From Ophelia neglecta (Eukaryota): a stretch of 64,000 nucleotides of DNA. The stretch is taken from positions 34,658,001 to 34,722,000 of the forward strand of contig OZ260662.1 in assembly GCA_965285935.1 (NCBI GenBank), in the 5' to 3' direction. The notes beneath the pieces were generated by a model, which was given only the letters and a program-made list of their open reading frames with translations, was not told where the DNA came from and did no database searches. Every line of letters starts with the position of its first letter. Position 1 is the stretch's first letter. This document shows, one piece after another, positions 13,501 to 50,740 of the stretch. The position numbers and the translations under genes were made by a program.

Positions 13501-13861
13501 CTTCAACTTTTCTTCATTCCGACTGTTTAACTATGGACTGTTAGTAATTAGAACTTGAAAATGTAACCAAGGGATTAGATTTCAACCAAATTTACCAGCT
13601 GAGATGAAGGTGATGAAACAAATAAGAGTGTTGTTAAAATACCAGTCATCATGTCAGAGTCGGGCTCGTAAAATTGTCAGGGTATTGACGACATCATGCT
13701 TTTTTTCTAGGGAGGTGTGAGTGGATGGATACTGGAGTAGGCGTTATTCCTTGGCCAATCCTGTATGGCTGGTGTTTAGGTGATATTTCCTGTCCAATCT
13801 TGTGTATCTGTTGGGTACTAGAGATAGCTTCGTCAGTTGATCCATTTCCTCGTTCCCATAG

Positions 13862-13891
13862 TACTCTGTCTCTCATCTTAACCAGGTAAGA
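13862..13891 (+). other. Secondary candidate recursive splice site, junction 13885|13886
   Basis: tactctgtctctcatcttaacCAG|GTAAGA: pyrimidine tract with juxtaposed acceptor and donor. Confidence 0.45.
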
Positions 13892-21930: not shown

Positions 21931-21956
21931 CTTGAATTTTTTATGTTCAGGTAATA
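21931..21956 (+). other. Secondary candidate recursive splice site, junction 21950|21951
   Basis: cttgaattttttatgttCAG|GTAATA. Confidence 0.4.
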
Positions 21957-23456
21957 TTACATTGGCAATATCACCGGGACTAACTAGTGTAGCCAGACAA
22001 AGTGGCTAGCTTGTATTGAGTCACTCACAGTCCCCATCATCCATTTCCTAGGTTTTCTAGCTAGCATGGCTATTTTAAAAGAAGCTTCCCCACAGCTGTC
22101 TCCATATTCAGCTAATTGAATCTGAACCCCTGCAGTTTTCCACTTGAACACAATATAATTTGAAAGCCAGGAAACATGTTCCATTTTCATACTTCATTAT
22201 TTTCATCAGGATCCATTCAACTGGGCAGCATTCAGTTTGGAGCCCTGTCATTTCTTTGGGGCTCTGGATGAATCACTTTTTGAGATCAGGGTGAATTGAG
22301 TGATGATCATTTGTTAGGATAGCTTGGAGACAGGATTCTTCTGGGGTGCATAATTAGCAAATTAATGTGCTACAGTGTAATCCAATCTTGTGTAGTGCTG
22401 ATTATGAATTCATGTTCCAGCACAGTGATATTTGAAATAATGTAAAGCTATTAGGAAATCCAGAATGATTGACGGGCATTGTTCAGGGATGTTTTTGACC
22501 ATGCATGCAGGTATTATCTAGTCACGAATTTTTATGTAGTGGCAGAATACCAAAATCATTAGTCTGAAGTAGTCTGTGATTTGCTCCCAGCTGATCACAA
22601 TTTGTTCTAAAATTGTTCCTTTAGGCAACTGGTAGGTGTTCCTGCTTCATGAGGAATACAATGGTTGCTATCTATTTGTCACAATTACATTGCTGTTAAA
22701 CCTCTTTAAGTGTCTTTTTTCTGCCTGTGGGGGTGTGGATTGCAGGATATGAATGATACATATGCATGTCTGGAAGGTGTGTAAGGCATTTCACATGCTT
22801 GTTTTATGAGCCAGTACTTAACTCATCACCAGTGAGGGGATTCTGCTTGGAGCAAGCTAGACCTTATGAATGAAATATGCAATATACCATCTACATGGCT
22901 CCCTGCAAATACATGAACTGAATATCCAGATTGGAGATCAATGTACATGTAAATGTTCATCTCCATGTATATGTATGTCATTTCTCGCCATGTGGTGCAA
23001 TATTCTCTATTTACAAAGGAGTATCATGATATAAGGTTTCATTGTGCAGCATGTTGAATACAGCCGCATTCTGTCTGCTAGTATATTCCTGGTGTCTGTT
23101 TTAGTTTCTGGCAGGAGAATGTACTGTGATTGGTTTCTTATCGCTGACAATGAGCAGCATGTTTCCAAAGCCTGCCAGGCTGGCCAACTTAGCCACTCAT
23201 GGGCTCACTTCTACCCCCAAACTGAACTTGCATAGCTCATTGTGTAGTAATAAATCCTCTTGTATCTGGCAGGTCGGAAAGAAGGTGATACGAACCATTG
23301 AGGGCAGGTTATCAATGGACAAACAGAAAGGTGAATTATTAGATGGCATTATCTGGTTCCTGTCTTGCTGACAGTTTGTTTTACTTGATAGTCACATTGT
23401 CAGCAACTTTTGTACACACCTGTAAACTAGATAAGTTTGTAAAGACCAAGTTGCCT

Positions 23457-23522
23457 GGGGTGTAGACTGTCCGCAGTGGATTTACTGCCGGGGTGTAGAC
23501 TGTCCGCAGTGGATTTACTGCC
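23457..23522. repeat. Perfect 33-bp tandem duplication (GGGGTGTAGACTGTCCGCAGTGGATTTACTGCC x2)
   Basis: Units at 23457-23489 and 23490-23522 are identical. Confidence 0.95.
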
Positions 23523-26500
23523 AGATTGACGGCTTTACTGTTCAGTACCTGAAATCCAACATCACCGGCTGATTTCAGTGTCTTTTTTATGTTGCAAGCC
23601 ATGAACATCTGGAGTGTATGGCAATTGTTTCTCCAAGGATTTTCATCAGCACAGACCATAAAGTTGGATTTGGATGATATTAATCTTACTGTAATGTCTG
23701 GTGTTGATAACAAAATGGCATGTCTGTCTTTAAATGCAGCTATTGCTGTGGACAGTTAGAGACATGAACTATCGAGATGCAAATTGATACTACATCTATA
23801 CCTAAGTGTGAATTTATGCAGGGTATTTGTTTTCGTGGTTTTGCACAAAATGTGAAAAAACACAAAAATCATGGATCCCCCACAAGTGATATAAATGTAT
23901 AATTATGTAGTTATATTATAAATATGTGAAAATAAATTTTCAATAATATTTTTTTCCAATTAATCATAAAACTGAAAATATTTTAACTTACAAGTGAATT
24001 TTTCATGGTGTGTTTCAAAGCCATGTTAATGATCAGAGATATTGCCCACTTCTGTGTAAACTGTTACTAACACACAAATATTTGAATAATAGAGCAGATA
24101 AGGGGTATTATTGTAGATTTTTCAGTCAGTTTCATCAACAAAATCATCACTTTTGTGGATAGTAAAAGTCAACATGTAACCTGTAGGAAAGAACTTTTAA
24201 CTGCACATAATTACCACTTGCGTGACCTTGATTACAATCAGTGTTTGATTGTGGTTGAGATCATATTTTTTGGGGGAAACACAGAATATTCTTAACAGTA
24301 TGCAAAAGGAAAAGTAATGAATTTTCTGTGCAAGAAAAAGGAAGTTAACAAACTTGTGAGTTGAAAGTAGGCTTCTCATCCTTCTCAAACCATCTTGGAT
24401 AAAGACATGAATATGTGGCTGTATCCTAACTGCAGGGTTTGGGGAGGGGGGGGGTGTTAGGTTTTATCTATCAGCTATCTCCTGTCCGGAGGGTAGGTCC
24501 ATATGTCTCCGCTCAACTCCTGCCACAGAAACTTCCTGTGACATTACCTTGACTAAACCTGAGGTAATCTTCTGATATATGTGTACTAAATTTACTTTAC
24601 ATAAAAGATCAGCAGTATTTATCCCCTGATAAACCAACCTATCACTCAATGTAGTAGCCAGGTAGTGACAGGCTCCCGACATTTTATCTGCTGGCAGAAA
24701 GTTAGGCGGCTATTGAAGAAGAAAGCAAAGTAAATTCACCATCTCCCCAAGACAACTTGGCGTTTTAAAGAGCAGAACTGCAATTTGCCATCCTGTACCT
24801 ATGATCAATCATTCCACGATAATTTATAATCAGGTGTGGCTATCAGATTCAGGCTGCAGAGAGCTTCTGGGAAAGTTGTCGAATAATTTCTAGATTGGAT
24901 TTCCACCAACTCCGTGATCTGACGGCTCATCGCCACCCACTCCCCACAGCTGATGGCATCCGCTGGAAAGTGAACATTGCCACTATATTATCTCTATGTT
25001 TTAGGACAAATATAGGAACCTAGGAACCCTGATAATTGGGTTCTCAGGCCCAGGTTTTATGCTATGATATTAGTCAAGTATAATCATCAGTTGGCACTGT
25101 AAGTTGTCAGATTTACTTCATGATAGCAGCAGCAATTTGGTCTTAACTCTTGGATGGAAAACTGTAAAATCAATCACTCTGGTAAAAAAAAGTTGTACCA
25201 TGAAACTTTATTGATTATCAGTAATAGGGCTATTTTCTTGCCACCCATCTTTCCCGGACAAGACAAGTACTTGTTATGTTGTCTCCTTGTGGGCTCTCTG
25301 TGACTGGCTTTGAAGCTTGCCGTCTACTGTGAAGCTTTAAGGGCTGTCAACTTCCATACACCCAGGGCCCCACACCTAATACCCTGACCTCCAAAGTGGT
25401 CCTTGTCTCCTTCTCTCATTACTGCACATTATCTAGTGGAACTGGGGTGAGTTTAAGTCCACATCTCCACAGATACACCCACTCTGTCCAGCAGCAGAAA
25501 TCAATGCCGTCTCAAGCCGTCTTGGATTTTCATAAAGAAAAAGAGCTATTCATCATGCCCTCAATCACCGTAATGGACTAAAGAAATTGTGAAAATTACT
25601 CTAGAATGGAGCACTGACTGAAATAGTCTGGAGTCCGTCCCACCATAGTGTCCACAGTTGACTAAGCTACTGATGGTAAGAATGATTTATCGTTTGGCAG
25701 TTTCTTGCTATCTATCTATCTCTCTTTATGGCGAGCCTCTGAGTTAGGTACTTGGACAACTCTCTTCAACCCCTTGATTCAAGATGGACTCAAGATGCCG
25801 GACTTTGTTTTCTTGTCTGTTGGTATGTCCCTGCTGCATTTTTCTGACTTGGGATATTTATCATGCTCCATCAGAACCAATCAGAACATGTTAAAGAATG
25901 TCTGCTGCTGAAAAAGACCGGCTGAAGTTGCCAAATGAGTTGTGATGTACGGATGCAATGAAGTGTTAAACTTTTCATCTATGGTGAATGAAGCATGAGA
26001 CTCTGCAGATTAGTCCCTCTACTTTTTGACATGATATTCCAAGAAGATGTAATGACTGGCGACATGACAATTCTTGCGGAACTTGTCATTCACTGGACAT
26101 TTCACTTCCAAGTGGCTTCCCCACAATGGCTCGCATGCTTGTGGAGCCAGGCCGAGCAGAGGAGCAGACTGAGTGAGCAGCCCACATTTAATGTGGCCAG
26201 CCACATCAAGTCTGGAGTTGTTGTTTGACATACAGGGATAGTTTAGTTGATCAGAAATAGAAGTAGGAACAAGCTTGATTGAGTGTGTATAATTGTGGTC
26301 AAAACAGAGCAGCTAATTATCCTTGTTGAAATTAATCAGCTGGGAACTCCTCAGAGGAGCTTGGCTATTATCACACAAACCCTAGTCTGTCTCAGCTTGT
26401 TGTTTGAGTATACAAATCAGGGGTTTCTACACCCTCCTGGCAGTGACCCTGGTATTGGATGTTAGCCCCAGTGAGAGGGCTGGCACCCCAGGGCTGGCAC

Positions 26501-26636
26501 TCCTGTCTTGTGTGTTTGATCTACTTGTATGGTGCTGAGTGGAGAGAGTCTCTTAGTCACCAGGTCAGCCACAGGGAGTGTGGCCCTGTTTTAACACCCC
26601 CATATACTGCCATGCTGGGCAGGGTTTGGAAGCCAT

Positions 26637-27010
26637 CAGTCAGCCCCAGGGGGAGAACATCTGTCATTGGATCCTTGTGATACTGTCTGGCTTGGCTGAG
26701 TCTGGTATAGTACTGAAAACCATTGGTCAGCCCCAGGGGAGGAGATATCTGTCATAGGGCCCTGGTCATACTAGATTGTCTCAGGAGAGGGGATACAGTG
26801 GTCCCTGCGATGTAGGGTCACCCCTAAATCCAAGGAAAAGTGGCCCTACATTGCAGGTGGCCCTTCATCGGAGGTACTTTAACATAGAAAAGATAGGACA
26901 TGGGAATTCAAAACCTGTCCTGCCAATGCAGGTGGCCCTTCATTGGAGGGGCCCTACATCGCAGGGACCACTGTATCTGTCATAAGGCCCTGGTCATACT
27001 AGACCATCTC
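26637..27010. repeat. Degenerate local tandem repeat (..TCAGCCCCAGGGG..ATCTGTCAT..CCCTGGTCATACTAGA) interrupted by the MITE
   Basis: TATCTGTCATA(G/A)GGCCCTGGTCATACTAGA occurs at ~26746 and 26974. TCAGCCCCAGGGG occurs at ~26640 and ~26727. Confidence 0.7.
26796..26973. mobile_element. Tc1/mariner superfamily (pogo/Tigger-like) MITE, 178 bp
   Basis: Perfect 22-bp TIRs CAGTGGTCCCTGCGATGTAGGG / CCCTACATCGCAGGGACCACTG, flanked by TA (26794-95 and 26974-75). Internal repeat TGCAGGTGGCCCTTCAT x2. Confidence 0.92.
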
Positions 27011-29684
27011 TGAGCTAGGGTGTAGGATTGACATCTTTTCGTCTGCCCCAGGGTAGAGGCTGTGTTTAGCTGTATGGGATGCTGCACATGTATGTATTCC
27101 CCTGTACTTACAGCTGTTAGCCTGTGCATTTGATTGGTCAGACCTGAGTCCCTAGGGCTCTCCATTAGTTATTGGTCAATTCACAAATGCAGACAATCAA
27201 TTTTCATTTCCACACAGTGGATTCCACTAAAATTTATGTTGGAGAAGGAGCCCATATCCTGTGGGCCTGAAGGTACCATGGTGTGAATGCCTGACCTATG
27301 AGCATGCTTATCACACACTGTCTCTCCAAATTCCACCGGAATCTGCTGGGAATCTGCTGGTTCTTCAATGATGTAGGTTAGACTTTTATGTCAAGCAATA
27401 GGAGCTTAATTTGACACAAAAAACATGTTTAGATTTATTTTTATTGAGTGCTTGGGCACATAATGACTAGTGTAAAATACGGATGGAATTTATTTTAAGT
27501 GTGAAGATGTATATTGTAGGAGACAGGCAGCTGTCCCTCCCCCTTGTGGTATCCTCTCTGTGGTATCCCTCCTTGGCGTCCCCTCAATGTTCTCCCTGAG
27601 AAGTTACCTCCATGGTGGTTTAGCTTCCTGTGATGGGAGGTCCTCTCCCTCCAGGGTGGTCTGAGTGGCAGCTCATCCATGTGTAGTTGACTGAAAATTA
27701 TGGAACTGATTAAAAGCGCACGCCTATTTGGCTTCATTTTCCAGGGAGACAGTCTCTCAGACCATTAGACAGTGGTCAGTGAAAAAGAAAAAATACCATC
27801 TGGGCAAATGAAGAAATATCAGCAGGGACATTTGACTTCCCCAAAGCACCAGTTTCAGATTTTTCAGTGTCATTTTAATTAAAACAAATACACACATAAG
27901 ATTTATTTTCTTTTCTTTGGCTGCAGAAAAGCAATTCCCAGAATCACTTGTTATCGTATTGCCATAAATGTTCATTCCTACTCCAGCAATGAATCAGCGT
28001 GTAGGGACAGTTTTATTTCAATGCCAGTAAAATGTCGTAGCCTTTTCATTTTGCTCTGGAGAATGTTCCAAGGGTCAGATTGTGTAATACCAGAGGACCA
28101 TCCTGAGTTACACAGTTCCTCCAGATAACCATATTTTTGCCTGAGCAGTTTGGGCATCATGTGATCCAAGCTAAGATAGTTACCATGATAAATGGTGAGT
28201 GTTGTCAACCGAAGTGGAAAGAATTGATAAATCAGAGCGATCAGTTTAGAGATAGAGCTCCAGAAACTGTGTGGGACCGGAGTAACTTTGGTAATGAGGG
28301 AGCAGGGGTCAGAGGGGGCAGGGTGTAGAGCCCTCTGATTTCAGACAGAAATATATCTTAGTCATTTCTCCTGGTGATTCTATGATATATGCTTGGTGGC
28401 TGTGTTCTTCATACTGGACAGAAGCTCAGGATGGTGCGTGTCACAGTCCCTGATTATTGGACTCCCTGTGATACTTCATGCTGTGCTTGGCTCAGTGTCT
28501 CCCTGAGCAGTCAGACTCCACCAGATTCTTCAAGCAAATACAATAGATTTGCCTATTAGTAGTCATTGACATGAACAAACAGAATATCCTGGCAAGTCCT
28601 GTCTATTAAGACTGACCTCTGTAATTTGGAATTACCTCAAATCATACAAAATGTATGAACCACTGGCAGAGGCATGTCCAGGAAAACCTAACTTTAAAGT
28701 TTGGTTATCCCACTACATGTAAACCAGTTTCTATTGATTTGGTTCCATCATTATTAAGCCTGAAACATTTTTTGTCAATTGGTAAAGTTGGACCAAAATG
28801 ACCTGCATTGATAGGCACAAATTTTGATCCAATTATTAGTGGTATGATGGGATCAATCAGTGTAGAGTATGAGCCGAGACAGATTTTCTCTTAAAATGGC
28901 TGACACTTTCAATTTAGATCTATAGTTTACAAGTATGGGCCCTTCTCTGCAAGATTTGGCTGGCTCCTCATTTGGCTCTGATCGCAATTAAAACTACACT
29001 TTTTAACCAAGCCTTGACATTTTGTAGAAATTGGTTGGCACTTTCACTTGGCTCTCTGCTCACTGGTAAGCCTCACCAGCATCATCTGGTTCAATAATAT
29101 CCCATATAGCACCCTGGTCAGATAGATTTCAGCCAGGGGTAAGATTAGCTTAATGTATTGTGACAGTAAAAGACTATTGATTCTGACCCTGTACTCATTC
29201 AAGCCTATAATTGAGAAGTGGCACTCACTTGAAGTAGGCTAGGCTTGCTAACTGTGGCCTCAAACTTATCAAATTTCATATTGATTGCTACAATATTTGG
29301 CAGAAAATTTGCCCAAACTACTTGATTAATGATATACAGATGTGGAGATATAAACAATATAATTCTTCATTGACTTCAACATTTATCCTAGTTATGATGG
29401 CAAGAGAATAACCATGCTGTACCCAGAGTACACCTCCTTAGCTACAAGACTTAGGCCAGGCTGGTCTCTGACAAGATTGATGATGGCTCCAGCAGTGCTG
29501 TATTGGTCATTAAGCTCATACCTTCTATAGTATTACTTCTATCAATTTTGCTGTCTGCCCACAGATTTCGCTTATCTGTTTGCTTCTAATCTTAGCAATT
29601 CATTGGTTTTCTCAACAGGAGTTCTTGTGATCCTCTCAGTGGTATCAGTGGTGTGCCACTTGGCACTGGGATCAAAGTACTCAT

Positions 29685-29748
29685 AGGTCACAGACAACCT
29701 GACCTAGATGTGCATGTCAGAGGTCAATGATGGGTCAAAGTGGGGTCA
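29685..29748 (+). promoter_or_regulatory. Cluster of five nuclear-receptor half-sites including tandem DR5-DR5
   Basis: AGGTCA 29685, TGACCT 29700, AGGTCA 29721, GGGTCA 29732, GGGTCA 29743. The last three are each separated by exactly 5 nt. Confidence 0.45.
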
Positions 29749-30100
29749 AGAGCATAGGTAACATTGGAGAGATGCTGGTGATGTCCTCAGGGTAATTACA
29801 GATGGAATCCCTCTAAGAATCTTCTCCTCTCCAAGGTGGTCAAGGGTTGAAATGTCAGTGAGGCAGCCAGGAATGCAGCATATCTGGCAAGTTGGGTGTT
29901 CCATGGTGTCTTCTCTCTCATAATGACTTAAACCGACCTAGGCCATCATGATTTGGGAGGATAGGAGGTGTGCCTAAATGTCAAACTGCACAGCATGCAG
30001 AATGTAATTCCAAGACCAGCTCAGAAATCAGCCTTGCCCTGGTACCCTATCTTTGGATATTCACCTGTACTACCAGCTTTGTGGTCCCTTATTTATAGAG

Positions 30101-30570
30101 CTCCCCTTGCTTCCAATGCTCTCCCAATCACTTGTGAGCTCCCTATTGTCTCCCCCACGCCCTCTGGACTACTATACTCTCCCCATCACTTGTGGGCTCC
30201 CCATGGTCTCCCCATCCCCTCTGGCCTCCTAAACTCTCCCCATCATGTGTGGGCTCTCCAATGCCCCATCCCCTCTGGGCTCATAAACTCCTCCATCACT
30301 CATGGGATCCCCATTTTCCCTCTGGACTCCGGGTGCTCTCCCCATCACTTGTGGGCTGCCCATTTTCTCCCAGTCCCCCTGGACTCCTCTATGCTCTCCT
30401 CCATCACTTATGGACTCCTTAGTTTCCCTCTGGACTCCCTATGCTCTCCCCATCACTTGTGGGCTGCCCATTTTCTCCCAATCCCCTCTGGACTTCTCTA
30501 TGCTCTCCCTCATCCCTTGTAGGCTCCCCACTCTCTCCCCATCTCCCCTGGACTTCCCTTGCTCTCCTGA
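30101..30570. repeat. C-rich degenerate minisatellite, ~8 units of ~50-59 bp (core CTCCCCATCACTTGTGGGCT...CCCTCTGGACT)
   Basis: Core recurs at ~30121, 30179, 30236, 30289, 30338, 30397, 30445 and 30505. It explains the repetitive ORFs at 29968-30913. Confidence 0.9.
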
Positions 30571-33277
30571 ACCTCTGTGGCCTCTCTACGACATCCACTC
30601 TTCCCTCAGTAAATCTGTAGAAAGCCACCTGGAAATGACTGTGAGACTCCCTGGGCATTACTGGTGTCCTGTGTCACATTACCAAGTAATGTATAGCACT
30701 GTTACTGTCCAGGTGATCAAGCTGTATTGTATTACCTCAGTGCCCTTTCGTAAAGCCTCATTCATTTTCTCTTTACTTCGAAATTTCCTTCTACAATGTT
30801 TTTGTGGATCTCTGAGGAGCAATAAATTAATTTTGCTTTTGGGAATACAAGCAAACACCAGGCATACTGGACTAGATATATCCCAGTTTATGTATAGCCA
30901 AGTTTCCTATTAATCTTGAATAAGGATTTCAGCATCTGCCTTTAAGCCGTAGAAAGTCTGGGAATGAACGTGACTGCCTGTTATCTCAGGGCTTGTTATT
31001 CTGTTCCATAAATCTAGAGCAGAGCTTTCAGGCAGCTTTGCTTTGCTTTCAAATAATTATGGGAGAATCCTGACGGATTGACCCATTGCTAGAATATGAA
31101 GAATGACGTGAGGTAGGGGCAGGTTTCTGGCTCAGTCCTATGCCAGAAGGATGCCACCTGTATTGTCTATGAACTGGAGGTGAAGGCTTAGAGGTCAGAA
31201 GCTGGTGACAGTGAGCGCACTTCTGCTGGATTTATGTTAAGTTTTCTGTGGCTGGCCATTTTTGTCAAACAGAATTATAAATCAGCAGATAGAAATGTGT
31301 CACTAGAGGCTTGATTTGGCTGTTCTTTGTCAAGGAATTGTTAGAGTGAAGTCTCCTTTGGGAGAACCACTGAATGTCTTAAGGCTCAATTGACATTTGA
31401 AAGATGTATATTAAGAAAATGCCTGAATCTGGAATTCATTTCACTTTACATCAGCACACATTGTTAACTTGCATCATTTAATTGGGTATATAATGAAGTT
31501 TCCATGGAGACAAGGCTCTGATATGATATGAAATACTGTTGGCTAGCAACCATTAAAGTTTGATGACATTTTATACGATAGCGCCATTTTTGCATCAGTT
31601 TCACAAGTCATTAACAAATTTGTTTAATTATTTTTCTTCTGATCACAGTCTACACAGAAATAATTTGGACACTTTGAAACCAAAAGTCAGATTTTGTGTG
31701 TGTATAGCCATCAGTAAACGTCTGGACACATCAGTTCACGCTTGATGGCAACAAATCTATGCGGGCAACTACAATATGTTTGATGTTCACTGTGTTCAAT
31801 CCTTTTACATGTAAGTCCTTGGCCAAAAAAGCTGGAATAGGCTTTCAAAATTAATTTTTAAGGCATTCACACCTACAAAAGTTAAATAGTTATAGATTAT
31901 ATTTTACAATGATGTAATGTTGACAAACTGTGACTTGGACAATGTTTTGGGTTTGTCTTACTGCAGGGCAAAAAGAACTGCACAAGGTGAATTACATAGA
32001 TATTTTAAATCCCATTTTCTCCAGGATATATACTTTTTAGTTGAAAAAGGTTATAAACATTAAAGAATGGCAATAGCTTGGTCCTAGGTTTCAAGTCTAA
32101 TGGCAACAACTAGAATGCTTAATCAAGAATTTTGCAAATACCACACATGTTAACAGAATACCAATGTGTGCTGCTGGCCCTCGGTACTAAGACCATGCTG
32201 GCTGATCTTGTGTAATGTACATATGGCTGTGTGTAAGCCTTCAGGGTATAACCAGAGATGCAGCCAAAAGCATTGCAGGCTTGGCTCCTAAATACCATGA
32301 GTAAATTGTAAAGGCTCTTTATTTGTGGGCCTCTGGGATATGCCACTGACACACTCCTATATGTCTATATGTCTACTTAGATTCAGAACAGGTGACCCTG
32401 CGCACGTTTGAATAAATCTGATTAAAGTACTGATGAAATTGGTGGCGGAATGTCAGAGTCTGAGGAAATTAAAATAACCCTTGTTGTCCACAACTCAGTG
32501 AGTCTGCCCATAGTTTACTAAATAATTGTCTACAGGTTGCAGTGTCAGAAAACTGCTTTACACTCAATAAATCAGAAATCTGCATCTTTTAGCAAGCTCC
32601 AAAAGACCCATTACTTGCTCAGTGTATACATAACTTTGTACATATTACTTTATTTTTGTTTTGTTTTTTAATATTCTGAACATGTGAGAACAGCTTCATA
32701 TTTACATGGGCTCTTGATCTCTGCTGCTGCATGCAGGCACACCTATAAGAATACCCTGGTCTCTCATCAAGGAAGTTTATGAAGACTTAAACAGTGATTT
32801 ACCATGTGAATAAGAGGGTGATTCTCTTGTTGTTAGAGTTTATGGTTAATTTATTTGCATGTAATGACTGAACTCTGTTGGTCAATTGTAGCATAAATAT
32901 TATTAAGTTGGGTTTAATCTGCCCTGAGTTTAGTTTTTTTCTTCTCCACATTTAACCAAAACCAGTATTCACGTTCCATGCTTTCATGCATCTCACTTTA
33001 TGACCATTTTTGTCTTGGTAAATATATTAAACATAAAATTTATTCATTTTTTAAGTAAAGCAAGTGACAGATTAATGGTGAACTATGGTTCATGTATAAA
33101 GTCTACTCCACTCATGGGACCACTGGTCTTCTAATTATTTCCAGTGTATAAAGTAGTTGGCCTTCAATATCCAGCCAGAAGCCTGCCTTTAACAAATTTA
33201 ACAATATCTATGCCATATTTTCATGAGAAATGTTTTTTATATCCATTATAATCCAATACACATATATTATTTATAAT

Positions 33278-33310
33278 CTAACATATATTTTATTTATGTT
33301 TCAGGTAAGT
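33278..33310 (+). other. Candidate recursive splice site (ratchet point), junction 33304|33305
   Basis: CTAAC branch motif at 33278-33282, AG-free U-rich tract atatattttatttatgttt, then CAG immediately followed by GTAAGT. Confidence 0.75.
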
Positions 33311-34969
33311 AATGGCAGGGTGGGATGATATTTCACCAGACATTTGGTATCGTACAGGACATGCCAATGTATAGAGGAAGCACAGCTCCTAACAGTTTCA
33401 CCAGCACTTGGTCCAGCCTTTCCCCTTACGTGCCATGTAATTCATTGGTAGCCATTATATTGCTTCAAGTCTTGGTAAGATATTTACAGTCCGTCCTTCC
33501 TGGGTTTTATGATCTTACATGTTGCTGCTAAGTGTTAGCGGGTCCCTGTAAGCCACAACTAGCGATCCAAATGGAAACCTATATCTTCTAAACCAGGTAA
33601 TGCTCCAATAATGCCTCCAACTACTGTCAAAGCTCATCACAAGCTGATGGCTGATTTCTACCTCCAGCCAACCAAGTGGCACCAACATGAACTGCAAGAG
33701 TTGGGAGTTAATGCAAACTGAAATGAATTATCCTATGGGAAGATGTGGTATTAAATCATTTTCATAAGATATTCCATGAAGCATTCAGTATGCATGTGTA
33801 GGGTCTTTCTGTGGTTTACAAGTAGCAAACAGAGTTTCTTCATAGCTCATGTCCTTTTATTTGTGTATATTCAGTGTGCAGTTTTTATATGATGCAAAAT
33901 TCAATCCAAATCCCAATTTTTCTTGACCTAAATACATGCACCATAAAACTAGCAGTATGCAATTCGTCATTGGAGAAATTTGGGTCAGGGAATGACCCCC
34001 GGGTCAAACATGAGGCTGCCCTCTGAACTCATCCATGACCATGTTTTCCTCTCAAATTTCATATCAGTAAACTATTTCGACACCTTATCTGGAATTATGC
34101 ATATTATTTTACCCTGCTGGATCTCAACATATGACATTCTGTGACATTTGCCTCCTGAGTTTAGATACCGCTTGGCACCCCTTTATTAAGATGTCAGCAG
34201 GGGGGGTCTTCCCAAATTGGCTGGTGAGTTTGAGGATTAGCAGTGATGCTCTGTTCTGCTCCGGGTTGCTTAGTTTATGGCAATATTGATAGTTTTATGT
34301 CATTATTTTTGTCCATTTATCATGATCCTATGTCATGCTGTCACAGGTTGATTGTGTTTTTAGTAGCCAGCCAAATTAGCTGGGCTATCATGCAGGAGAT
34401 GGCCACATAGTCTGCACGAGGAAATTGTACATCATGAGAGTCTTTAACTGATTTTCCTCAAGACCATTTTCCGTCTTTTGTTTTATCCTAGTGTCCCAGC
34501 TAATGGTTTCCGGTCATAATGTGATAGTGACCAGGACCTTAACCCAGGCCTCCTCAGCAATATCACTGGCCGCTGAAGGTTGATGCTCTATACAGGGACC
34601 ACCAGGCATTTGTAGGTTAGGCTTGTTAGGCTTCTGCATGTAGAACTCCATCCACTATTGTCCTAACCAGGAAACATGGGACAGGTGGACAGAGGATGAA
34701 AGTTTGAACAAGGGACAATCCAGGCTATTTTTCATATTAGCTGAATATACATCCTGAATCAGGATATTGTTAAGGGAGAATACATCACAGGATACCATGA
34801 ACAGCCGTCACATACATTACCCATGTCTAAACAGAAAGTGGCGCCAGTGATTATAAAATGGCATGTGGGGTCTAATCTGGTAGACTGACAATGAGCTCTG
34901 GATCACTACGAGATTCAGAGATACAAAACTGAGGGTGCAATACATCCCTGGTCAATAAGGGGGACACCA

Positions 34970-35482
34970 AAAGCTCTGAAAGCTCTTGTCTACTTATCTT
35001 TTCAAAGAGAGCTTCAAGTCTCCCAAAACTCTTGTCTACACCTCTTGTCACTGGAAGGAAGGCTAAAAGCTCTCCAAACTCTTGTCTACAAATCTTTTCA
35101 ATGGAAGAATCGATTTCCTAAACTCTCGTCTACATTGGTTGTCAATGGGAGAGACTGAAACACCAATCTCCCAAAACTTGTCCACATACATACAAGCTCT
35201 ATAGGAGACAAACCTTTCTGCTCAAACTCTTTTCGACTTCTCTTCTGAATGAGAGAGAGAGACCAAAGCTGCCAAGAGTCTTCTCTCCATGGGAGTCTCA
35301 AATCTCCCCAAACTCTAGTCCACATCTCCCCCAATGGAAGGTTCAAATAAACCCCAAAACTCTTTTCTACATCTTCTCTGAATGGAAGACTAAAATCACC
35401 AACAAAACTCTACATCTCTTGTCAGTGGGAGACTCAAAGCTGCCAAAATTCTTGCCTTCATTTCCTCTCAATGGAAGACTAC
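34970..35482. repeat. Old degenerate minisatellite, ~11 units of ~45-50 bp (core AAACTCTTGTCTACA...TCAATGGAAG)
   Basis: Core recurs at ~34981, 35026, 35076, 35121, 35174, 35224, 35310, 35356, 35405 and 35445. Confidence 0.8.
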
Positions 35483-38400
35483 ATGTGTTGGACTTCTGTC
35501 ATAATTCAACACTGCTTGGTGTTCTCCCAGCTGGCCATGGAAACTTTTATGTTGATCAAGCCTTTGTGGAACTAAAAATGTCTATTACAGATTTCCCCTC
35601 CCTCCCATGTCCCCAATACAAAAGAAGATGACACCCTGCCACACCCTTCAAGTGACAATGCATTATCTAATGGTCCCATCCTATTGTTTTGCATAAAAGA
35701 CAATGCATGTATTTAAGCATCATTATATTAACTTAAAATGGAGGTGAAATATGGAAACAGTTGCTAAGCTGAAGGCATGGATGAATGCACTACACTGACT
35801 GTAGACCAGCTAAAAGATTTCTCATTATATTTCTTCAGTGAGTCATTTGATGTCAGATAAATTGCTGATAAGAACATGTGCAGAATTATAATGCAGTGTT
35901 TTGATTGAACTCCCTGTTTTACTTGCTAAATATTAATAATATTTAGCATCTTATTCAAATCAAGCTGGTACCTGAACATTACCATTTACTTCAAAGCCGA
36001 TCAGTGGTCAAATCTATAGAGTAATGACCAGAGATGACAACAAATATGATTTAGTGGGCATTTAATATGCTGGATTGAGGTAAATGGCATTTTTGATGTC
36101 ATGAAAATTGGGACATGCATCATTCTGTGTCCCTGTTGCAATTACTAGTAATTAAAAATAATGATTTCAGTGTCTCAGCCGTGGATGTGAGATATTGTAG
36201 CTGACCTCAGGAGAATCAAAGCCAGCAAATACAACTCATCCATTATTATCACAGCCAAATTGTGATGGTAGACTTCATTCTGAAAACACTTTAAATTCCT
36301 AATAGATAATGCAATACTAATAGATTGACCAGTCTAACCCATACCTTGATAAGGGAATTTAAAATTAACAGGTAAATTGACTGTTCAGTGTATTAACATT
36401 ATGAAATGCAAGACAGAAAGGTGCCCAGGTTAAATGTGTATTCTTTGAATAATCTTTCCTCTTTAGTGTTGAGTTTAAGGCTTTTCATGCATTTTAATGC
36501 ATATTGTATGGCCTACAAGCACATGCATGTAAATTTTCATGTACATTAGATCATTAATTATGAATGCTGTAGGAAGACAATGGACAACTTGTCTGACAAG
36601 ACAACAGCACGGCTGGTGCCCAGATGAGAGAGACCAGTAGAGATCTGGATCTTCTGGCTGATAGTCTGACCTTCTCACAGAGTAAACTGGGCTCTAGGGA
36701 GGTCATTAAGTCAATATTAAAACTTATGATTTTATCAATGAACTTTTGCATGGCATTCAACTGAGGGCAGATTCTACACACAGAGAAATATTTTAACTGT
36801 TCTCAGCATGAAATGACAATTAGTTGATTACCCAGGGAGCATTTGGTGAGAGGCTGGTGCAAGTGATGAAAGTAGCAAACATTTGGAATTTATGGTTTAT
36901 GCCATTATCTGCATTTTTTGTCAGGTTTTTTTCTGTGATATTTCCACCATGGGACCTTGTGTCAGGAACAGAATGATTTGATTCATTTTAAATTACTTAT
37001 TTTGCTTGCATGTATTCCAAGTGGAGATCTTTGAAACCTATGTTATTATCTAAGTTTTCAAATGCCAGTTGCTTTCCATAATGTCTATTGCGTGTTATAT
37101 CTCTATGGTTATACTTCAAATATTTTACACCCTAGACAATTATAGCTTGTTTATCAATGTACAGAGCAGGAAGTTTGACAGTTGCAGGCTTTTATGACCA
37201 GCTAAAATTGAACAGCTAGCACCCATGTAAAAGTACAATAGTTATTATTATTTTGTATCGCCTTGCCTTTGATCTTTTTATGCCTCTCTGTGACACTCTC
37301 ACACTCAGATGGGTTTATCATGAGGCCAGTGCTGGTTTTTGCCATGTGAATTGTTACACTAAGCATAGAGCCTCCCAGAGGGTGGCCATTACTTGAGGAC
37401 ATTCCTTGTGACATGGTTAATGCCTGCCTGGAGGCTTCTCACTGTCAGTAGTGAGGGGTTTTGTAGGGAGACTCAGTTACTCATGATGCTGGCCATTTTG
37501 AAGATCATGTTGATAGCTGTGTCACCTGCTTCTGCTCAGGTCATATGTCAATTTCCATATCTCCACCTTAAACTCACCAATGACCTTACAATTTGTTTTT
37601 TATATTGCCATTTTGTTGGCATTGGTTTTCATGGACGACTGGCAATTGTCAGACTCGCAGTACACTTCAGGTTTTCAGAGGTTTTATTGGTTTAGTCAAG
37701 AATTGCGTCTCCCTTGTGATCCCATCCAGTGATTAAATTAATCCAGATATTAGTCATACTATGATTTGTGTGTGTGTGTGTTTATTATATAGAAAGAGTT
37801 CCTGCAGTGCTACAAACAGAAAAGTACTTTTTTTGGTCCTTGTTGATCATGTTGTGTGGGAAAAAACTTGAAATAACAATTTTTGATCAGTCCTTAGATA
37901 GCAGGAAGCCTGGTGCCCCTTAAAAGCTTAATAAAAGATAGCCAGATCGTGGTACGGTTCTATTTATCTATGATTATATTGGACATGTGCCCTATATTTT
38001 GACTTAAAAAAAAGATACAGTGTACATGCTTATAATTTCAATGCATTATTGATTCAGTAAAAAGACCAATGGCCATCAGGTCCCGATAGCATGCCACCAG
38101 ATCTTTGATCAGATTCGTCCCATACAGTATTAGACCAGATTTAATGCCAAAGCAAAGTTTGACATCTGTGCCATGTTGGGCTTTTGTTGATTTAAAAATA
38201 TAAAGGCCGAGCCTTTTTCTTGGGCCTTTCAGTCGTTCTGATGGGGGGTTTTGTTGAACTCTTCCTGTCATGGTTTTTCCCCATTCTGATATGAAATGCG
38301 AGACAGTCCTGACAATGGAATCCAGCACCATCTGCTTCACAAGCTATGTATGTTGGCTAATATATATTCTTCATATGATGTATTCTGTAGTTTCATACGC

Positions 38401-41205
38401 TTGTATTATGAAATATGAATGCAATTGTCAAATAATTATACTAGTGGAAGCAATTAGTGATATCATTTTAGGTAAAAGGTGATAAAAAGTAAGAAAAGGT
38501 GGGCTTTCTATTTCTTTATATTCAACTTTAGGTATTCAGCACTTGCAGTCTTTTGGGCTCAAGGCAGTTACTGACAAGGAAGGCCTAGTACACTTGTGCT
38601 CAGTAATACTATGGTTACATGTAATTTACTAAGAAAACTTTAGGACCAAGCACGGATATCAACTGAACTTGTTTGTAAATTACACTGTAGATATATTACT
38701 CATTCAAAGTAATCACTGGTTTGTAACATGACAGATTTTGTCTTTAGAAAACTGTTGGTTGATATAAATTAACATAAATGTTGATATAAATTTAAAAAAT
38801 GCATTAAATGAAATATCAACAGAGTTGTAATCTTAATCTGTGTGATTTCTTTGGGTTTAATAACATAATTATACTCATTCTTGTAGATTAATTGGGCTGC
38901 CAAGAATAACTAGGCGATTAGAAAAAAAATGATTATGACTTGAACTGATTCATTCTAGCGAATAATTGTAGACAACTTTACAAAACTTACGATGCAGGTT
39001 CTATCAATATTTTCAGCAAAAACTACATCGATAAAACCCGTTTAAAGCTGTATGATATTTGATATGTTTTTAAAGTGTGCCTGCATGTGCGACTATAGAA
39101 TAGCGATTGCCATTGAAAACGCTGTGATCTCAGATGATGATATTCACACATGCCTGCTGGTTATTATGTAATTATATGGGCTGCCTTTTTTACAGTAATA
39201 ATTTGTACTGATATACCACCTAGTTTACATAAATCATTGTGGATGTGCCATGATACATGCATCACAAAATGTCATTTAGATCTGTAATTTAACCTTGAAA
39301 ATCCTATTTTTTAAAGAAAAATAAGAACTAAAGTATAGTTTATAGGAAAATAATGTACTGTATTTAGCAGTGAGAGCTAGGGGTGTAAAGATGCATATGT
39401 TAGTTCACTTTTAAGTATCAAATTGCTGTCTGCTTTCTATACACTGTCCTGTATATCAGACACAGAGATAAGATGGGTCTCCCAGAAGATATAGTCCCAT
39501 CTCATGCTAAGAACTCCACCCCAGTGTCATAAAGTTCTCCTCCCAGTGAACTAAGGAGGCAGATTCTGTTAACCTTACCCTATTCCTGGCAGGAATGCAG
39601 AGCTGGGCTTCTCCCTGCCCTTTAGTTTCTTATATTTCACCTTGATCATTGATGTTTGGTATCAATCCAGCGGGATAGGACGCTTGGCGCACCAGACACT
39701 TCTCATGTTGTTTTGTAAGCCACAAATACAAGACTACCTTTAATCATCCACAAGCCAGTACACATGTCTAATAAACTACCAGTAATTTACAAACTTTGAC
39801 AAAAACCAATGCAAAGCATGGCTAAGTCTTCTCATTTGATCCTTGCGGCATTCTGACGATGATACCAATTTCACCTATTCAGTTACTACTTTTCTTCTGG
39901 CGGTTTCTCCCAGTTTCAAATGCAACACCACTGATAATTATAATGAGTCAAGTTTGCAATGTCATAGTGCTTTTTTGATCTGGGAATACTTTTATGATTG
40001 TACTTTGCAGCACCTTAGCCATAGCTGCAATCTTAGCTTTCATATAACTTTCCCTACAGAGCTCAGGTATGAAAAACCTATGAAAAGATGATACCTGAGA
40101 TTTGCAGTCTTTATCAGTTGTCATAATTTGCTGATGATTTATTTGAAGTATCAGGGACTCTGGCTTGTGGAAAGTCTGCTGGAATCCAAGAAATGTACTT
40201 TAGGACCAGGTCTGGATAAACACGGGCAACTTGTGTAGATTACACCTGATGATAGCAGGGTTTGAACTCGAAATATCACACCTGAACTTAATACACAGAC
40301 AGTGGAAAACAGCAATATCAAAGAACCATTTTCCTGTCTTGACTTCTACATACATAAATGCATTTTACCATTGGATTCTCCTTGATTTTTTGTCTTCAAA
40401 GCCACATGGTTGTTACATTTTTTTTCTATATTTAAGTGGTGTATTTTATTTTATTGTAGTAAAATAATGGCTGGTATTAATAATCTGTTTGACAGATGTC
40501 TACTTATTTGTCTATTTAAATTCTCCTTTCAGCATTATGTTGAAAGTCAAGCCAATATCAAGTGCCAGTGTTTATACAAAAAGCAGCTGAGGAGAGAAGG
40601 AGAAAAGAGTGTTTTTGTGAGTGGTGTTTCCGTTTCTGTTATTGGTTACCTAGCTGCCCTGATGTTTTATTGAGGTACCCTAAGCCAGAGGATCAACAAG
40701 CCTCATGCCAGGCACCAGATAATCTCTATGGCCCATCAAAATGTCAGATATCATACACTACAGACATGTTATGAAATCATATCGACCACCAGTCCTCAAA
40801 CTTACCATGCCAGTCAAACCTTCTGATATTGGCAAAATTTTGCATGGTTTACTAGCCAACCAGCAATGATTTATTGTAATATGTAGAAAATAAATTGTAT
40901 CTTAATGCAGCAACATCTTCAGTGTTCCATTTTCTAAGCAATATCCTGATTTTGAAACCTCTTACGCAATCAAGTTCTGTTCTGACATTTGCAAGTTAAA
41001 TCCTTTTTCTTTATTTTTACAATTCAGTTATTTTTCTCTGCCACTGTTATCCTATCAAATTTATAATTTCATTGTATCTTTTTCTTTGATCCTATACTGG
41101 GGAGTGTGAGATTAAGTCATTCTTGAGTTAATACAAATGAGAGGTTTTTATAGGAATTGCCCAATATTTTGTGGCTTCCTGTGTCCTGCAGGCAGAGCTA
41201 TCTCT

Positions 41206-41248
41206 TCTGGCCTGTATTAGTGACATGACTTCTCTGGCCTGTATTAGT
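41206..41248. repeat. Short tandem duplication (TCTGGCCTGTATTAGT x2, 27-bp period)
   Basis: Seen directly. Confidence 0.8.
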
Positions 41249-43687
41249 CACATACCTGGTGCCTTACTGATAACACCTATAAGAAAGCTGTTTGGGGACT
41301 AGCGGCCCACTGCTCATCTCAGTATTGATTGATTGCTTTGTTCAAAACGACCCCTGTATGACTATGAATAGATCCTTTCGAATAGATCCTTTTTATGTCC
41401 AGTGACTATTGAAGTAAAGTTATGTGATTTGCAGTCTCACTTCAATATAGATTTACCAAGAAACTCACATGTGCACACAGTTTCTGTAATATATGTGAAC
41501 AATTTGTATCCCCAACAGGCTGTCAAACTGACTTGCTATGCCACCTCCTTATATGCAAGTGGCTTATTGTGTATGGAATGAGAACTGGCAGCTGGATGCA
41601 GTTTTTGCACTTTATCCACAGAAAGAGTAGCCAAAGGGATAATTCTTGGTATCCTAATAAATTATTTGCCACAAGTTTATGAAGCAGAAAGGCAGTTTCT
41701 TTCAAGTTGTTAACCACACATCATTGAAGGGCAACTTGTTTATTTCCTCTATCTTCAGGAGGAGAAAAAATGGATACTCAACAGTAAATAGTTATATACC
41801 TGACAAAACACCTGATAATAAGAGTAAGTGGTTGTCAGGGGAGTATGTAAGATTATCACCGACCACCCACACTGTCTTCTCCTCATCTCCTGTGTAATGC
41901 CATCATTATCAGAACACATTAATCATATCCTGAGCAAACAGACACTTTAGACAGTTTCATATCTCAAAAATACTACAACAAAGGTCAGTCTCACTATATA
42001 GGCTGTCTAAGTCATTTAAGCCATCACTGACTTTGTCAGAAGGAAAATGCTGCTACTTAGGGCCTTATTGAGGTGCTGATGGCCTCTTGGCACTCTTTGT
42101 CAGAGTTGTTTTTGTTTTCCTGACAAAGTTGTCATATATTTTATATTTATGATAAACGAGCTGAGTTGTTCAGGGATGAATGGGTCGGAGTGATTCTGAT
42201 TGGTTGGCGGGGTGTGGTGGAGTGCTGCAAGCCTCATTTGTCCACCTCTTCAGCTTCACCCTGGACAGAAGGGGGCAGCTAGGATAGTTAGACACATACC
42301 TGGTAATGTCAGCATCACCAGTCCTCCTTACCTGACAGGATCTGATGTGAATGTCAAATTGTAATTCCACTCAGGAATATAGATCAATGTCATATGATAG
42401 GGGGTGTAGGTAAAGGTAACTATTTGATTTGACAGGAAGGTGAGTGATTTAGGTTCCAATAGGCACTGGTAGGAAACATTTATTGATTGGGATCATCTCC
42501 TGCCGGGCCATATTTCACATTTACCATGTCTGAACTTCATACGGCTTGACTTGTGATATAAAATTTCCCGTTTACCAGCCTCTGTGAATTGCTCAATCCA
42601 CATTAATCATTTTCCACCCCATTTCTCAAACGTATTGCTTTCGGGAGGTAAATTGAATTGGAATATTTTATTCATTCTTTGACCAATATGAGTTTTCAAG
42701 CTTAAAGCGTTCAGTGAAGATAGGATTTTGTGGGAGAAGCATAACATCTGAATTATGTAAAAACAAGCACTTTCATTTCCACTTATGCATTCCCTTTGAT
42801 CATCCAACATCTGTTCATAACTCTCTCCTTGGCTCTGTTTGAAATTATACTGCTTGAAAACAGTTAAAAACTGTCCGGCCCAAGGTCAGCTCCATGACGT
42901 ATAGATGTCAGTGAGGATAGCGGCACTTTGCTTTTTAAATGCTTGGTTGGACAGTTGTTTTATTGTCAGTTATTTATGTGTGATCAAAGTGTTAATTAAC
43001 CTTTTAAAATGCCAGTAAAACATTTTATTTTCCAAATAGCGTGAATTTGTAAAATATCTTCTAATGTTTCATGGTACGTAGTTGTTAAATACATTCAAAA
43101 TGAGTGCTGGGCCAAATAAAACCCAGAATGGGGTAGGAGAATAAAAGTTGTGTTTTGAACAAGTATTTGATATTGAGAAATGGCAAAATTTGATGCTCCC
43201 CGAAATTATGTTCTATGGTGCATTTTTTGTAAACACTACTCAGTTACCAGTGTATCAAACACCTGTACTTGTACATATACCATACCAACAGATACCACAT
43301 GTTTTACTACAGTGTGCAAATATACACTGTCAATTACACTTACGAGCTGCATATTTACAACAAATGGGCTGTTGGCCAAATAAATCATTTTATAGTTTCC
43401 ATCAAATGTTGAGTTGTTATTGTTTTTGCAATTGCTAAAGATATTAAAAATTTATCACCAATGCCCTGCACCTATTGTGATTCATCCTGTTAGCCTTGGG
43501 CACTTTTTTGCTATTGGTGAAATATATGCATTGTGCTTTTGTCATGATAGATTGAGCTGTTTGTGGGTAAGGTTAAGCTTATTGGAATGTAATGGATGAG
43601 TTTGACAGAAGTTTCATTATTTACAGCAGAACCTTTGTGTTGGACTCCCTAACTAAGGCGTGGACGTGGTATGTACATTTGTACATA

Positions 43688-43701
43688 GTGCCCCCTGGTT
43701 G
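43688..43701 (-). promoter_or_regulatory. CTCF-like motif CAACCAGGGGGCAC
   Basis: One mismatch to the CCASYAGRKGGCRS consensus. Confidence 0.35.
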
Positions 43702-46700
43702 TAAGAGCATACAAATGACTAGTGTTCATTCATTGGTTTATTGAATTCATTCTGCTGAGCTTTGTAGGGAAAAGTTTGATTAATGATTTGTACAGTATTG
43801 CAGTTGGTCGACAAACACCCAAAGATTGATTACTTCATATTGTGTGTTCCTTTGATATTCCTTTGAGAATATGACTATGTGAGGCTCTTGTGCCACTAAT
43901 AATCTGTACATCATCCTAGAATGTCACTATGAACAATATCTGGGAAGCAGACACATAAATATAACTATATCAGTAATATTCAGTATACATTAAACAATAA
44001 ACTAACACCTACCCACTAGAAATATTTATTGATGACACATTTATTAATTCACCCCCTTGGTGATATAAGGTTGTGGGTATCAGCATATAGCATGTAGCAG
44101 TGAACAAATATGTTCCCTTGAATTGCAATACGTCAACTCAAGATTATTATGGCCCAAATTACATGAATATTGCATAGCCGTTTGAGATATCAGCATAAAA
44201 TGATTCAAAACATGAGGAATTTCTGCAAATCTGAAAATCAAGCTATCCAGCCTCATCCAGCTAATGATCTTGGATTGTCTGATTCACATATTTTACATTT
44301 GCCTGGCACTAATCCTTTTTAATCAATGCTGGTGGCAAATCATGAAATGTGTTAAGAGTTTAATTCTAGGGATTTCCTATTAACAGTTTCACTAATGTAA
44401 AATATTTAAATTGGCCATTTTTCCTATATTGGTATTATAGTTTGGCTAGACAGTGTCAATGTTCTGGTTTCTAACTTGTAAAATTTGTGTTTCAGCGCGT
44501 GATATTAATCCAACTTAGCAGAAGACAATTTCTGTTTCATGAGTCAATGCCCCTGGCTAGCGACTAGGAAGCTTTAAATCATTTATGGTAACCTAGTTGC
44601 TATCAATCTAAAGAACCTTTATTATGGCCCATGGGTTTGAGACGGTGACTCAAACTCTTTTCTCTCTTCCCATCCATATTGTCCCATTTCAGTGTAATCT
44701 GATACAATTAATGGCATATGCATCTTACAATAGTCAAATGTTTCCCTTCGCACCACTTGTTGCCCCGGGCTGGTCCAACGCCTATGAAATTTTATGGAGA
44801 TATGAACAATTTTCTGTTTTATGTATATCCCTGAGCAGTATTATGTGTATGATGGTGGCTAAGCTACAGATGGGTTGGAAGCAATGTGAATCTCTCCCTA
44901 TCTATCTATCTATCAATTGTTCTGCTTACCAATATGGTTATTGCAGTGGAATTACAACTGGGGGGCTTCTTGATTAGATTATATCATTTCTAACCTTCTT
45001 GGATTCGGTGAAATCAATTTCCAGCTTGAAAAGTGCATCATTATCCTCCACTTCTCCTCCACTTCTCAAGTGCTTTTGAGATCTGATATATTGCTACTAC
45101 TTAAATTGACATGGTATTTTGTCTAGATGCTGGTGATCTGGGAGTCTGATAGCGGCAGTCCCAGCTGAGTTGACACAGTTCTTAGTAAGCAGAATGCATG
45201 GCATCAAAAAATGAATTTGTACTTCCCCAGGGCATGGTTGCTTGGCTTAGTTCAACCCCAATCTATTATGTTCTATAGAAATGCTCAATAATTGAAAGCC
45301 TCTGTTTTCTGCCATTCTAATGAGAAGCAATCATGTAAATTGGCTAATCAAGATCAAACATGTGCTTTGGTAATTAGTAAACGTTTTTGTTACATTTGTT
45401 TGTGATAATCCATTGTTATGGGTAGGAATAAAAGGGTATTAACCAGTGAACCCCTCTCTTAAGATCTGCCCTAGTGTAGTTTTGAAAAATCCCAGTTTAT
45501 AAGTTATAATAGAAATACATGCCCCCAACCTATTAAAAGGGACAGGAGACAGGTCTGTATGAAAGTTCACACACGAACAAGTAAAAAACAAAGGAGAAAT
45601 CCCTGAGAACTCCAGAATCTTCCACACATGCCCTTCCTTATACTATGAAGGCTCCTAGTCTGTTTATAGGCTCAGACTGCTAAGGTTCATATGTAGGCTG
45701 AACCCATGATTTAGTGATTAATTTATTTAAACCAGAAAGCAAAGATGAATGTCAAATCCCATAATTCAATATTAGATACACTAAGTGTACTGTCCTCTAG
45801 GCTCTTAATGTGGTTGTAGCGGCTCCAGCTGCTTTAATAAAGGATTCTATCATAATTATAGTGATTTGGTCCTCTAAATAAATTTAAATGTACACCAAGG
45901 TCTGGAAGCCCATTCAGATACACAAATGTGGTTTGTACAATACTTAACCACATTTCATTTCTCTAATTAATATTCCCCCTTTTCAAAGGAAAAATGGGGG
46001 GTCGGGGTAGAGGGGGGCAAAATGGATTCTGCTTTAATAGAAATTTCAAGGATTGAATAAGGATTTGACAGTGATTTCCTTTCGATGGTAAAGATTCATT
46101 TTGAGGTTTAAAAGCTTAAGAGATCACTATTTCTGTAAAAATAATTTTCACTTATAGAAAGCATGCATATTCTGACAGTAACAATGTACTTGTGTATGTT
46201 TGAAAAGTGGTGATTCTGAGTCATAAGGTTTGAAGTACAGTAAATTTTCTACAAATACTGTTTGTACTTAAATATACAAATTTACTACAACAGGCAGTAG
46301 TTTAATTACAGACTGCATGTGTTTGTCCCTGGATGTCTCCTGTTAAGTTCTGGTAAATTTCACACAAAAACAGTTATCTCTCAATGTAGATAGCCAAGTA
46401 AAAACATCAGTTTAGAGGTGAGAAGTCAAGTTTTTTCTAAGTTCACCCTACATTAACCTGGGTGACATGCCTAGATTGGCTTGTGCCAGAAGACAGGAGA
46501 TAGCTGGGATGAGAGAGAATCGTCTTTTGTCTGCTGCCCGCGACCCATGATGAACACATCAAGGCGGGCACTTTGATGTTTTACGAAGTCGTCCAGGTAA
46601 ACAACCCACCTGTCAAGGTGTCACAATCTTAACAGGACTTAATTTGGGTGGCTAAAAGCTGGCAAGAAGCACTAATGAAGGTGATTGTTAGGCTGACCCA

Positions 46701-49420: not shown

Positions 49421-49515
49421 CATATATATATATACGTACACACATATATATATATATATAAAGTATATATATAAAGTATATATATAAAGTATATATAGAG
49501 TATATATAAAGTATA
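49421..49515. repeat. (TA)n microsatellite grading into (AAGTATATATA)n
   Basis: Seen directly. Confidence 0.9.
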
Positions 49516-50647: not shown

Positions 50648-50740
50648 CACAGGCCTAGCTGTAGGGGCTTGGATAGCATGTCAGGTATGACACCGGCACA
50701 GGCCTAGCAGTGGGGGCCTGGATAGCTTGTCAGGTATGAC
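50648..50740. repeat. 49-bp period imperfect tandem duplication (CACAGGCCTAGC...GGATAGC.TGTCAGGTATGAC x2)
   Basis: Copies at 50648-50691 and 50697-50740. Confidence 0.85.

Follow-up and report, generated by a model that had tools for sequence, protein, structure and literature searches.

The closest described counterparts of the site reported here are the ratchet points of Drosophila kuz (RP1 and RP2), Bx and Ubx, which share with it a tandem acceptor/donor placed deep in an intron of about 50 kb (PMC8605326, passages on these genes). According to those passages, the cryptic RS-exons of flies are about 50 nt long, generally out of frame, poorly conserved and almost never present in mRNA, and at kuz the RS-exon was not included until its own donor clearly surpassed that of the ratchet point. 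Vertebrate RS-exons are described, in the sections of PMC5126111 and PMC6224609 used here, as a competition between two donors in which inclusion is proposed to lead to decay through a premature stop. In humans most RS-exons are expressed, with the exon junction complex (EJC) keeping them in; those that are cryptic depend on a strong recursive donor and undergo skipping. An excess of ratchet sites has also been computed for the large introns of insects and sea urchin, in a survey of 13 species among which its relevant passages name no annelid, mollusc or other spiralian (PMC2773006). Our search of the literature outside subscription journals returned no paper on recursive splicing in molluscs, annelids or RYK.

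We analysed a window of 64,000 nt from Ophelia neglecta (contig OZ260662.1, positions 34,658,001 to 34,722,000, forward strand), in which a fused acceptor/donor lies at 33304/33305. As at the Drosophila ratchet points, its donor exceeds any donor downstream, the sequence behind it is out of frame and, judging from the alleles of one sample, apparently poorly conserved, and the implied cryptic exons across this genome have a median of 45 nt, matching the roughly 50 nt of the fly. It differs from them in having no good donor at about 50 nt, with candidates at +170 and +292 instead, and the fly sites are backed by RNA and conservation (PMC8605326, same passages), the RYK site being predicted from its sequence. 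With vertebrate RS-exons, as far as the sections cited above describe them, it shares competing donors; its layout is that of the strong-donor, skipped kind, unlike the mostly expressed human ones. The regulated poison exons of the splicing-factor genes SRSF3, TRA2B and SMNDC1, in the portions of the literature covered, resemble it as stop-bearing exons in an early intron; those are conserved cassettes whose inclusion has been shown, whereas the RYK candidate is polymorphic within one animal and opens with a dominant donor. Our genome-wide counts resemble those of the survey in comparing a fused motif with a control, and downstream donors were not among the tests in the survey's passages covered here (PMC2773006).

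The full fly-type signature appears in this probably annelid genome: a motif excess, serial same-strand spacing, and cryptic donors at about 45 nt. The removal of introns in steps, by way of short hidden exons, would then extend to Spiralia, suggesting that it is at least as old as the protostomes. The RYK site is itself one more probable ratchet point. The idea that it acts as a poison switch would matter more, but is unsupported.

RYK and the fused site in its first intron

Judging from its predicted protein, the gene in the window is the 5' part of RYK, on the plus strand, with a WIF domain and with DRL-2 and the RYK kinase as the best solved-structure matches. Exon 2 matches the Pfam WIF profile (E=2e-7), entering it near position 14 and leaving room for exon 1, and has a sole solved-structure match, PDB 7me5 of DRL-2 (E=4e-5). 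Another, later exon also matches the WIF domain, and a kinase exon shortly beyond the window has RYK as its top structure match (E=2e-13, runner-up 4e-6). Exon 1 on its own had neither a Pfam nor a PDB match; we infer that it encodes a hydrophobic leader and the start of the WIF domain. Intron 1 occupies 49,830 nt in a genome of 762 Mb, and none of its 117 reading frames of at least 66 aa had a Pfam match at E<=0.001, nor did seven further long ones. Single exons used as protein queries gave no match, and the genome was instead placed by its mitochondrial COX1, which is nearest to polychaete annelids (75-78% identity) with molluscs and other spiralians only slightly farther off; this makes it lophotrochozoan and probably annelid. 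The features of the gene and of the site are as follows, with a slash within letters marking a splice junction.

4461..4572, plus strand: RYK coding exon 1, ATG at 4461, phase 1 end, TAG/GTAAGT
4573..54402, plus strand: RYK intron 1, 49,830 nt
33278..33282, plus strand: branch-point-like CTAAC with its A at 33281, 23 nt ahead of the acceptor end
33283..33304, plus strand: T-rich tract and TTTCAG acceptor, 12 T in 20 nt, AG-free for 77 nt upstream
33304/33305, plus strand: fused acceptor/donor TTTCAG/GTAAGT, read from the sequence
33305..33312, plus strand: regenerated donor GTAAGTAA, formed once exon 1 is joined; TAA at 33310-33312 is a stop in the RYK frame
54403..54539, plus strand: RYK exon 2, WIF domain, phase-1 acceptor

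The preliminary description had placed the junction at 33304/33305, a donor TTG/GTAAGA at 33474/33475 closing a 170-nt exon, and weaker donors near 33320 and 33347; all of these positions agree with the sequence. So does the reading frame that it gave across the joint of exon 1 and 33305, G-GT AAG TAA, with exon 1 ending at 4572 (phase 1) and exon 2 beginning at 54403.

The element CTAAC would be the branch point, from its likeness to the consensus. Donors were scored in two ways, by a generic donor matrix (in bits) and by pairing energy with the 5' end of the genome's own U1 (in kcal/mol). The regenerated donor, whose positions -3 to -1 come from the end of exon 1, reached 10.7 bits and -12.1 kcal/mol, and exon 1's own donor was weaker (-10.5 kcal/mol). 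We found at 33304/33305 several features expected of a fly-type ratchet point, namely a strong tandem acceptor/donor (YAG/GTRAG) with a tract and a branch-point-like element, and a donor that beats the downstream ones on both scales (10.7 vs 7.1 and 8.3 bits; -12.1 vs -8.0 and -8.1 kcal/mol). Among the five AG/GT sites listed for intron 1, it is the one that pairs a perfect donor with a T-rich, AG-free acceptor. It lies on the sense strand, well inside the intron, which as a ratchet point it would divide into parts of 28.7 kb and 21.1 kb. The alleles are identical from 33184 to 33313, a comparison of little power in one sample.

Between +25 and +84 behind 33304 the best donor scores 1.2 bits; a near donor is likewise absent at 15 of the 45 T-rich sites examined genome-wide. 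Weighing this absence against the sense-strand, mid-intron position, we judge, without having computed it, that 33304/33305 is probably a real ratchet point in RYK intron 1.

A second, weaker AG/GTAAGA site is present on the sense strand of the same intron at 13885/13886 (9 T in 20 nt, closely preceded by CTTAAC and followed by donors at +20 and +95); it may represent a minor ratchet point or have arisen by chance. Elsewhere in the genome, U1 snRNA genes form a large tandem array at 105.6-106.6 Mb of contig C5 (unit about 1.36 kb), with 42 of 42 scored candidates above the family cut-off.

Fused acceptor/donor sites across the genome

The pattern Y10-N-CAG/GTAAGT occurred 44 times in the genome, compared with 12 occurrences of the reversed pattern. 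The excess was specific for T at +6: the same motif with A, C or G at that position showed none (50 vs 74). A second T-rich pattern, TTTHHHTTTYYAG/GTRAGT, yielded 21 matches against 3 in its control. When the 44 sites were paired at distances of 5-100 kb, six pairs lay on the same strand and none on opposite strands, with 0.14 expected; one of the six represents a duplicated segment, and at least five pairs arose in none of 20,000 simulations. Ratchet-like sites on the same strand are spaced 20-80 kb apart genome-wide. Against a pooled control pattern (1,006 matches vs 867) the 44 target sites were only about twice their expected share, a figure of little weight given that repeat families and one tandem repeat dominate this control.

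The bare 12-mer TTTCAG/GTAAGT was only 1.5-fold over its control (268 vs 174), and this excess may reflect ordinary exon ends. T-richness alone barely separated the class (14 of 77, vs 12-15% in the background). Sites that are both T-rich and AG-free for 40 nt, the class of the RYK site, made up 9 of 77 against a background of about 4%, so that about a third of this class is expected to be chance.

For downstream donors we analysed 155 distinct loci, comprising all 44 and all 21 sites of the two patterns, 30 of the 50 with A, C or G at +6, and part of the 12-mer set (of its 268 matches, every one of the 77 that remained on contigs C1 and C2, with a few on C5); removal of 7 repeat copies left 148. 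At the T-rich GTAAGT sites (n=45), donors of at least 7 bits numbered 22 at +25..54, where 1.6 were expected (14-fold), and 9 at +55..84 (1.6 expected), whereas the T-poor sites (n=48) had 0 and 3, respectively, with 2.5 expected in each interval. Plain GTRAG at +25..84 of the T-rich sites (30 vs 3.1 expected) and the U1 pairing score at +25..54 (13 vs 1.1 expected) both agreed with the matrix. The cryptic exons implied by these donors (n=25) had a median length of 45 nt and showed no preference of frame (10, 9 and 6).

Farther out, donors at +165..204 of the T-rich sites were not in excess (3 vs 2.1 by matrix; 1 vs 1.5 by U1). Those at +125..164 showed a weak excess (5 vs 1.5 by U1, p=0.02 before correction for seven bins; 5 vs 2.1 by matrix), which leaves some room for longer RS-exons, and GTRAG at +125..204 was similar between T-rich sites (9 vs 4.1) and T-poor controls (9 vs 5.0). 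Three of the 15 T-rich sites lacking a near donor had one at +85..300, where 3.4 were expected, which gives no sign of a compensating long class.

By these counts, the class of fused acceptor/donor sites is real in this genome, which clearly selects for them.

Donors, stop codon and alleles behind 33304

Four GT sites behind the junction, and the exon that one of them would close, were considered.

33317..33325, plus strand: GT site AGG/GTGGGA at 33320 (+15), its T altered in the other allele
33344..33352, plus strand: weak GT site TTG/GTATCG at 33347 (+42), 1.2 bits, -4.2 kcal/mol
33472..33480, plus strand: candidate donor TTG/GTAAGA at 33474/33475 (+170), 7.1 bits, -8.0 kcal/mol, of ordinary strength
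33594..33602, plus strand: candidate donor CAG/GTAATG at 33597 (+292), 8.3 bits, -8.1 kcal/mol, equal to or better than that at +170
33305..33474, plus strand: candidate 170-nt cryptic exon, single copy, polymorphic

The GT at 33320 is dispensable, since the other allele has a different base in place of the T and so lacks this donor, and 33347 is the sole candidate at the distance usual for cryptic donors in this genome. The donor at 33475 had been called strong, a term that its scores do not bear out: five of ten presumptive RYK donors are weaker and five stronger, a random 170-nt stretch of RYK intron 1 contains a donor as good in 20% of cases by the matrix and in 13% by U1, and the equal donor at 33597 had been overlooked. 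GC content is unchanged across 33474 (45% before, 43% after). The 33475 donor is therefore usable but common, and the evidence does not single out the 170-nt exon. The general proposal, a ratchet point followed by some cryptic exon, is likely correct and in keeping with the genome-wide pattern; the particular exon fares less well, as 33475 falls outside the zone of 25-84 nt in which donors pile up and its own interval shows no excess.

A repeat origin of 33305-33760 was rejected on a single genome match, in a search that skips common words, and no look-alike stretch was found in the other genomes compared. A coding role for the 170 nt was also rejected: the RYK frame stays open for 72 codons past the TAA, yet has no Pfam match. 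Nor did a 70-codon open frame on the minus strand at 33515-33727 have a Pfam match; it starts near a TTTCAG acceptor-like site, ends near GTAAG, and probably arose by chance.

Inclusion of the 170 nt would shift the RYK frame as well as bring in the immediate stop, giving a product of 39 residues; from the stop to the end of the proposed exon the distance is 162 nt. For decay, a stop 50-55 nt before a junction suffices. The premature stop is thus far enough upstream, but the same holds for almost any intronic stretch. An immediate phase-1 stop occurs at 22 of 114 other AG/GTAAGT sites, 95% of random 56-codon stretches of RYK intron 1 contain a stop, and of the 25 short cryptic exons genome-wide, 22 would break a phase-1 frame. 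The stop behind 33304, which the preliminary description had read as part of a possible poison-exon switch, is an uninformative by-product; fly cryptic RS-exons being generally out of frame and almost never in mRNA, stops are to be expected after ratchet points and do not indicate regulation. A restart at the ATG overlapping the stop (33312) was considered and rejected, as that frame closes after 20 codons and the ATG is absent from the other allele.

Allelic variation was read from three sets of contigs, all from one sample, which cover intron sequence and show no splice joints; one set matches the window exactly and may be what it was derived from. The second allele carries plain substitutions at 33314, 33448 and 33473, and at 33321 a substitution together with a 2-nt insertion. 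This amounts to four events in the 170-nt exon body against eight in 1,521 nt of flank (p=0.026, one sample); the counts are lower bounds, the contigs may mix alleles, and all four changes lie on one contig of depth 11. In the second allele the insertion lengthens the exon to 172 nt, still out of frame, and the stop and the cores of both main donors are intact; the GTAAGA core of 33475 shows no allele difference, which carries little power. The changes in the exon body point away from a constrained regulatory exon. They weaken the poison model and stop short of removing it, since the insertion keeps the exon out of frame and leaves stop and donor cores unchanged.

Readings of the RYK site and related clusters

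We favour, with a probability of roughly 0.7, a constitutive ratchet point at 33304/33305, at which intron 1 would be excised stepwise, in two rounds, with nearly constant skipping of what lies behind the site. Exon 1 would be joined to the AG at 33304, and the joint would recreate a near-perfect donor that would outcompete the downstream donors and splice to 54403, with normal RYK mRNA as the outcome. Skipping is favoured because the regenerated donor pairs with U1 at -12.1 kcal/mol, against -8.0 for 33475. A downstream donor may help recognition of the 33304 acceptor; the candidates are 33475 (the nearest fair donor kept by both alleles), 33597 and the weak 33347, among which the sequence cannot choose. 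Rare inclusion of the sequence behind 33304 would be degraded as an error and not used as a dial.

The acceptor and donor might instead lie together by chance, with intron 1 removed in one step or via another site and no exon behind 33304. The missing donor at the usual distance, the third of this site class attributable to chance, and the 174 control matches of the 12-mer genome-wide are all in keeping with such a coincidence. We nevertheless regard it as unlikely, as the sense strand, mid-intron position, branch-like CTAAC, 77-nt AG-free zone and perfect donor occur all together, the control rate would put a bare sense-strand 12-mer in fewer than 1% of 50-kb introns, and the genome as a whole clearly selects for such sites. 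Considerably less probable is that 33304 serves without re-splicing, either as the plain acceptor of a rare non-coding or terminal exon formed by the GC-richer block to about 33720, or as the 3' end of an unrecognised upstream exon. GC content does rise from 26% upstream of 33304 to 43-46% over 33305-33720 before falling to 32%, but in 2-kb windows the intron already ranges from 34 to 46%; an ATTAAA is present near 33750, but such hexamers are common in AT-rich DNA. Moreover, the 60 nt upstream are very AT-rich and acceptor-like, not exon-like, and a perfect donor at +1 would be left unexplained.

A regulated poison exon, which we consider equally improbable, would arise if the regenerated donor were masked, for example by the EJC, so that 33475 was used, translation stopped after 39 codons, and decay lowered RYK. 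Recursive donors can indeed be repressed by the EJC in human cells, yet strong ones are skipped even with the EJC present (PMC6224609, sections on these donors), and a rat pseudo-exon is reported to act both ways (Grellscheid and Smith 2006). In this reading's favour, 33475 is mid-range among RYK's own presumptive donors, its core shows no allelic change (a comparison of little power), and the 162 nt between stop and exon end are enough under the 50-55 nt rule. However, donor and stop are both at chance level, and long-range donors at T-rich sites without a near one do not exceed expectation (3 of 15 sites at +85..300, 3.4 expected). In addition, the gap of 4 kcal/mol favours skipping, and in the one sample variation is higher within the exon body than in its flanks (p=0.026), whereas studied poison exons, in the partial accounts covered, are often highly conserved. 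The earlier suggestion that competition between the two donors could set RYK output consequently finds little to sustain it: the competition is lopsided toward skipping, the stop is uninformative and the exon body polymorphic. If the poison reading were true, an unusually long RS-exon and a donor masked in some tissues or stages would shut down a Wnt co-receptor by decay; recursive splicing would thereby be linked with gene dosage, in a spiralian that otherwise has fly-like 45-nt cryptic exons at its ratchet points.

Several further clusters and sites of the class were observed. On C5, three ratchet-like sites of one cluster (9906907, 9954086 and 10021528, all on the same strand) resemble the RYK site in that no good donor is present at +25..84; together they may form a subclass recognised without a near donor. 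Elsewhere on the same contig (C5:13983061-14114383), a plus-strand exon encoding an ANF-receptor domain is followed by three ratchet-like sites on the plus strand, spaced at 39-40 kb, whose strong donors lie at +48, +48 and +64; the next exon of that gene was not found in the 200 kb inspected, and the intron is thus only putative. At about 14,001,600-14,002,340, on the same strand, a coding-looking stretch without a Pfam match may be a nested gene. Finally, four AG/GTGAGT sites (L101, L114, L118 and L119) have very strong donors at +46 to +50, and could be real short exons with a donor-like start, that is, expressed RS-exons.
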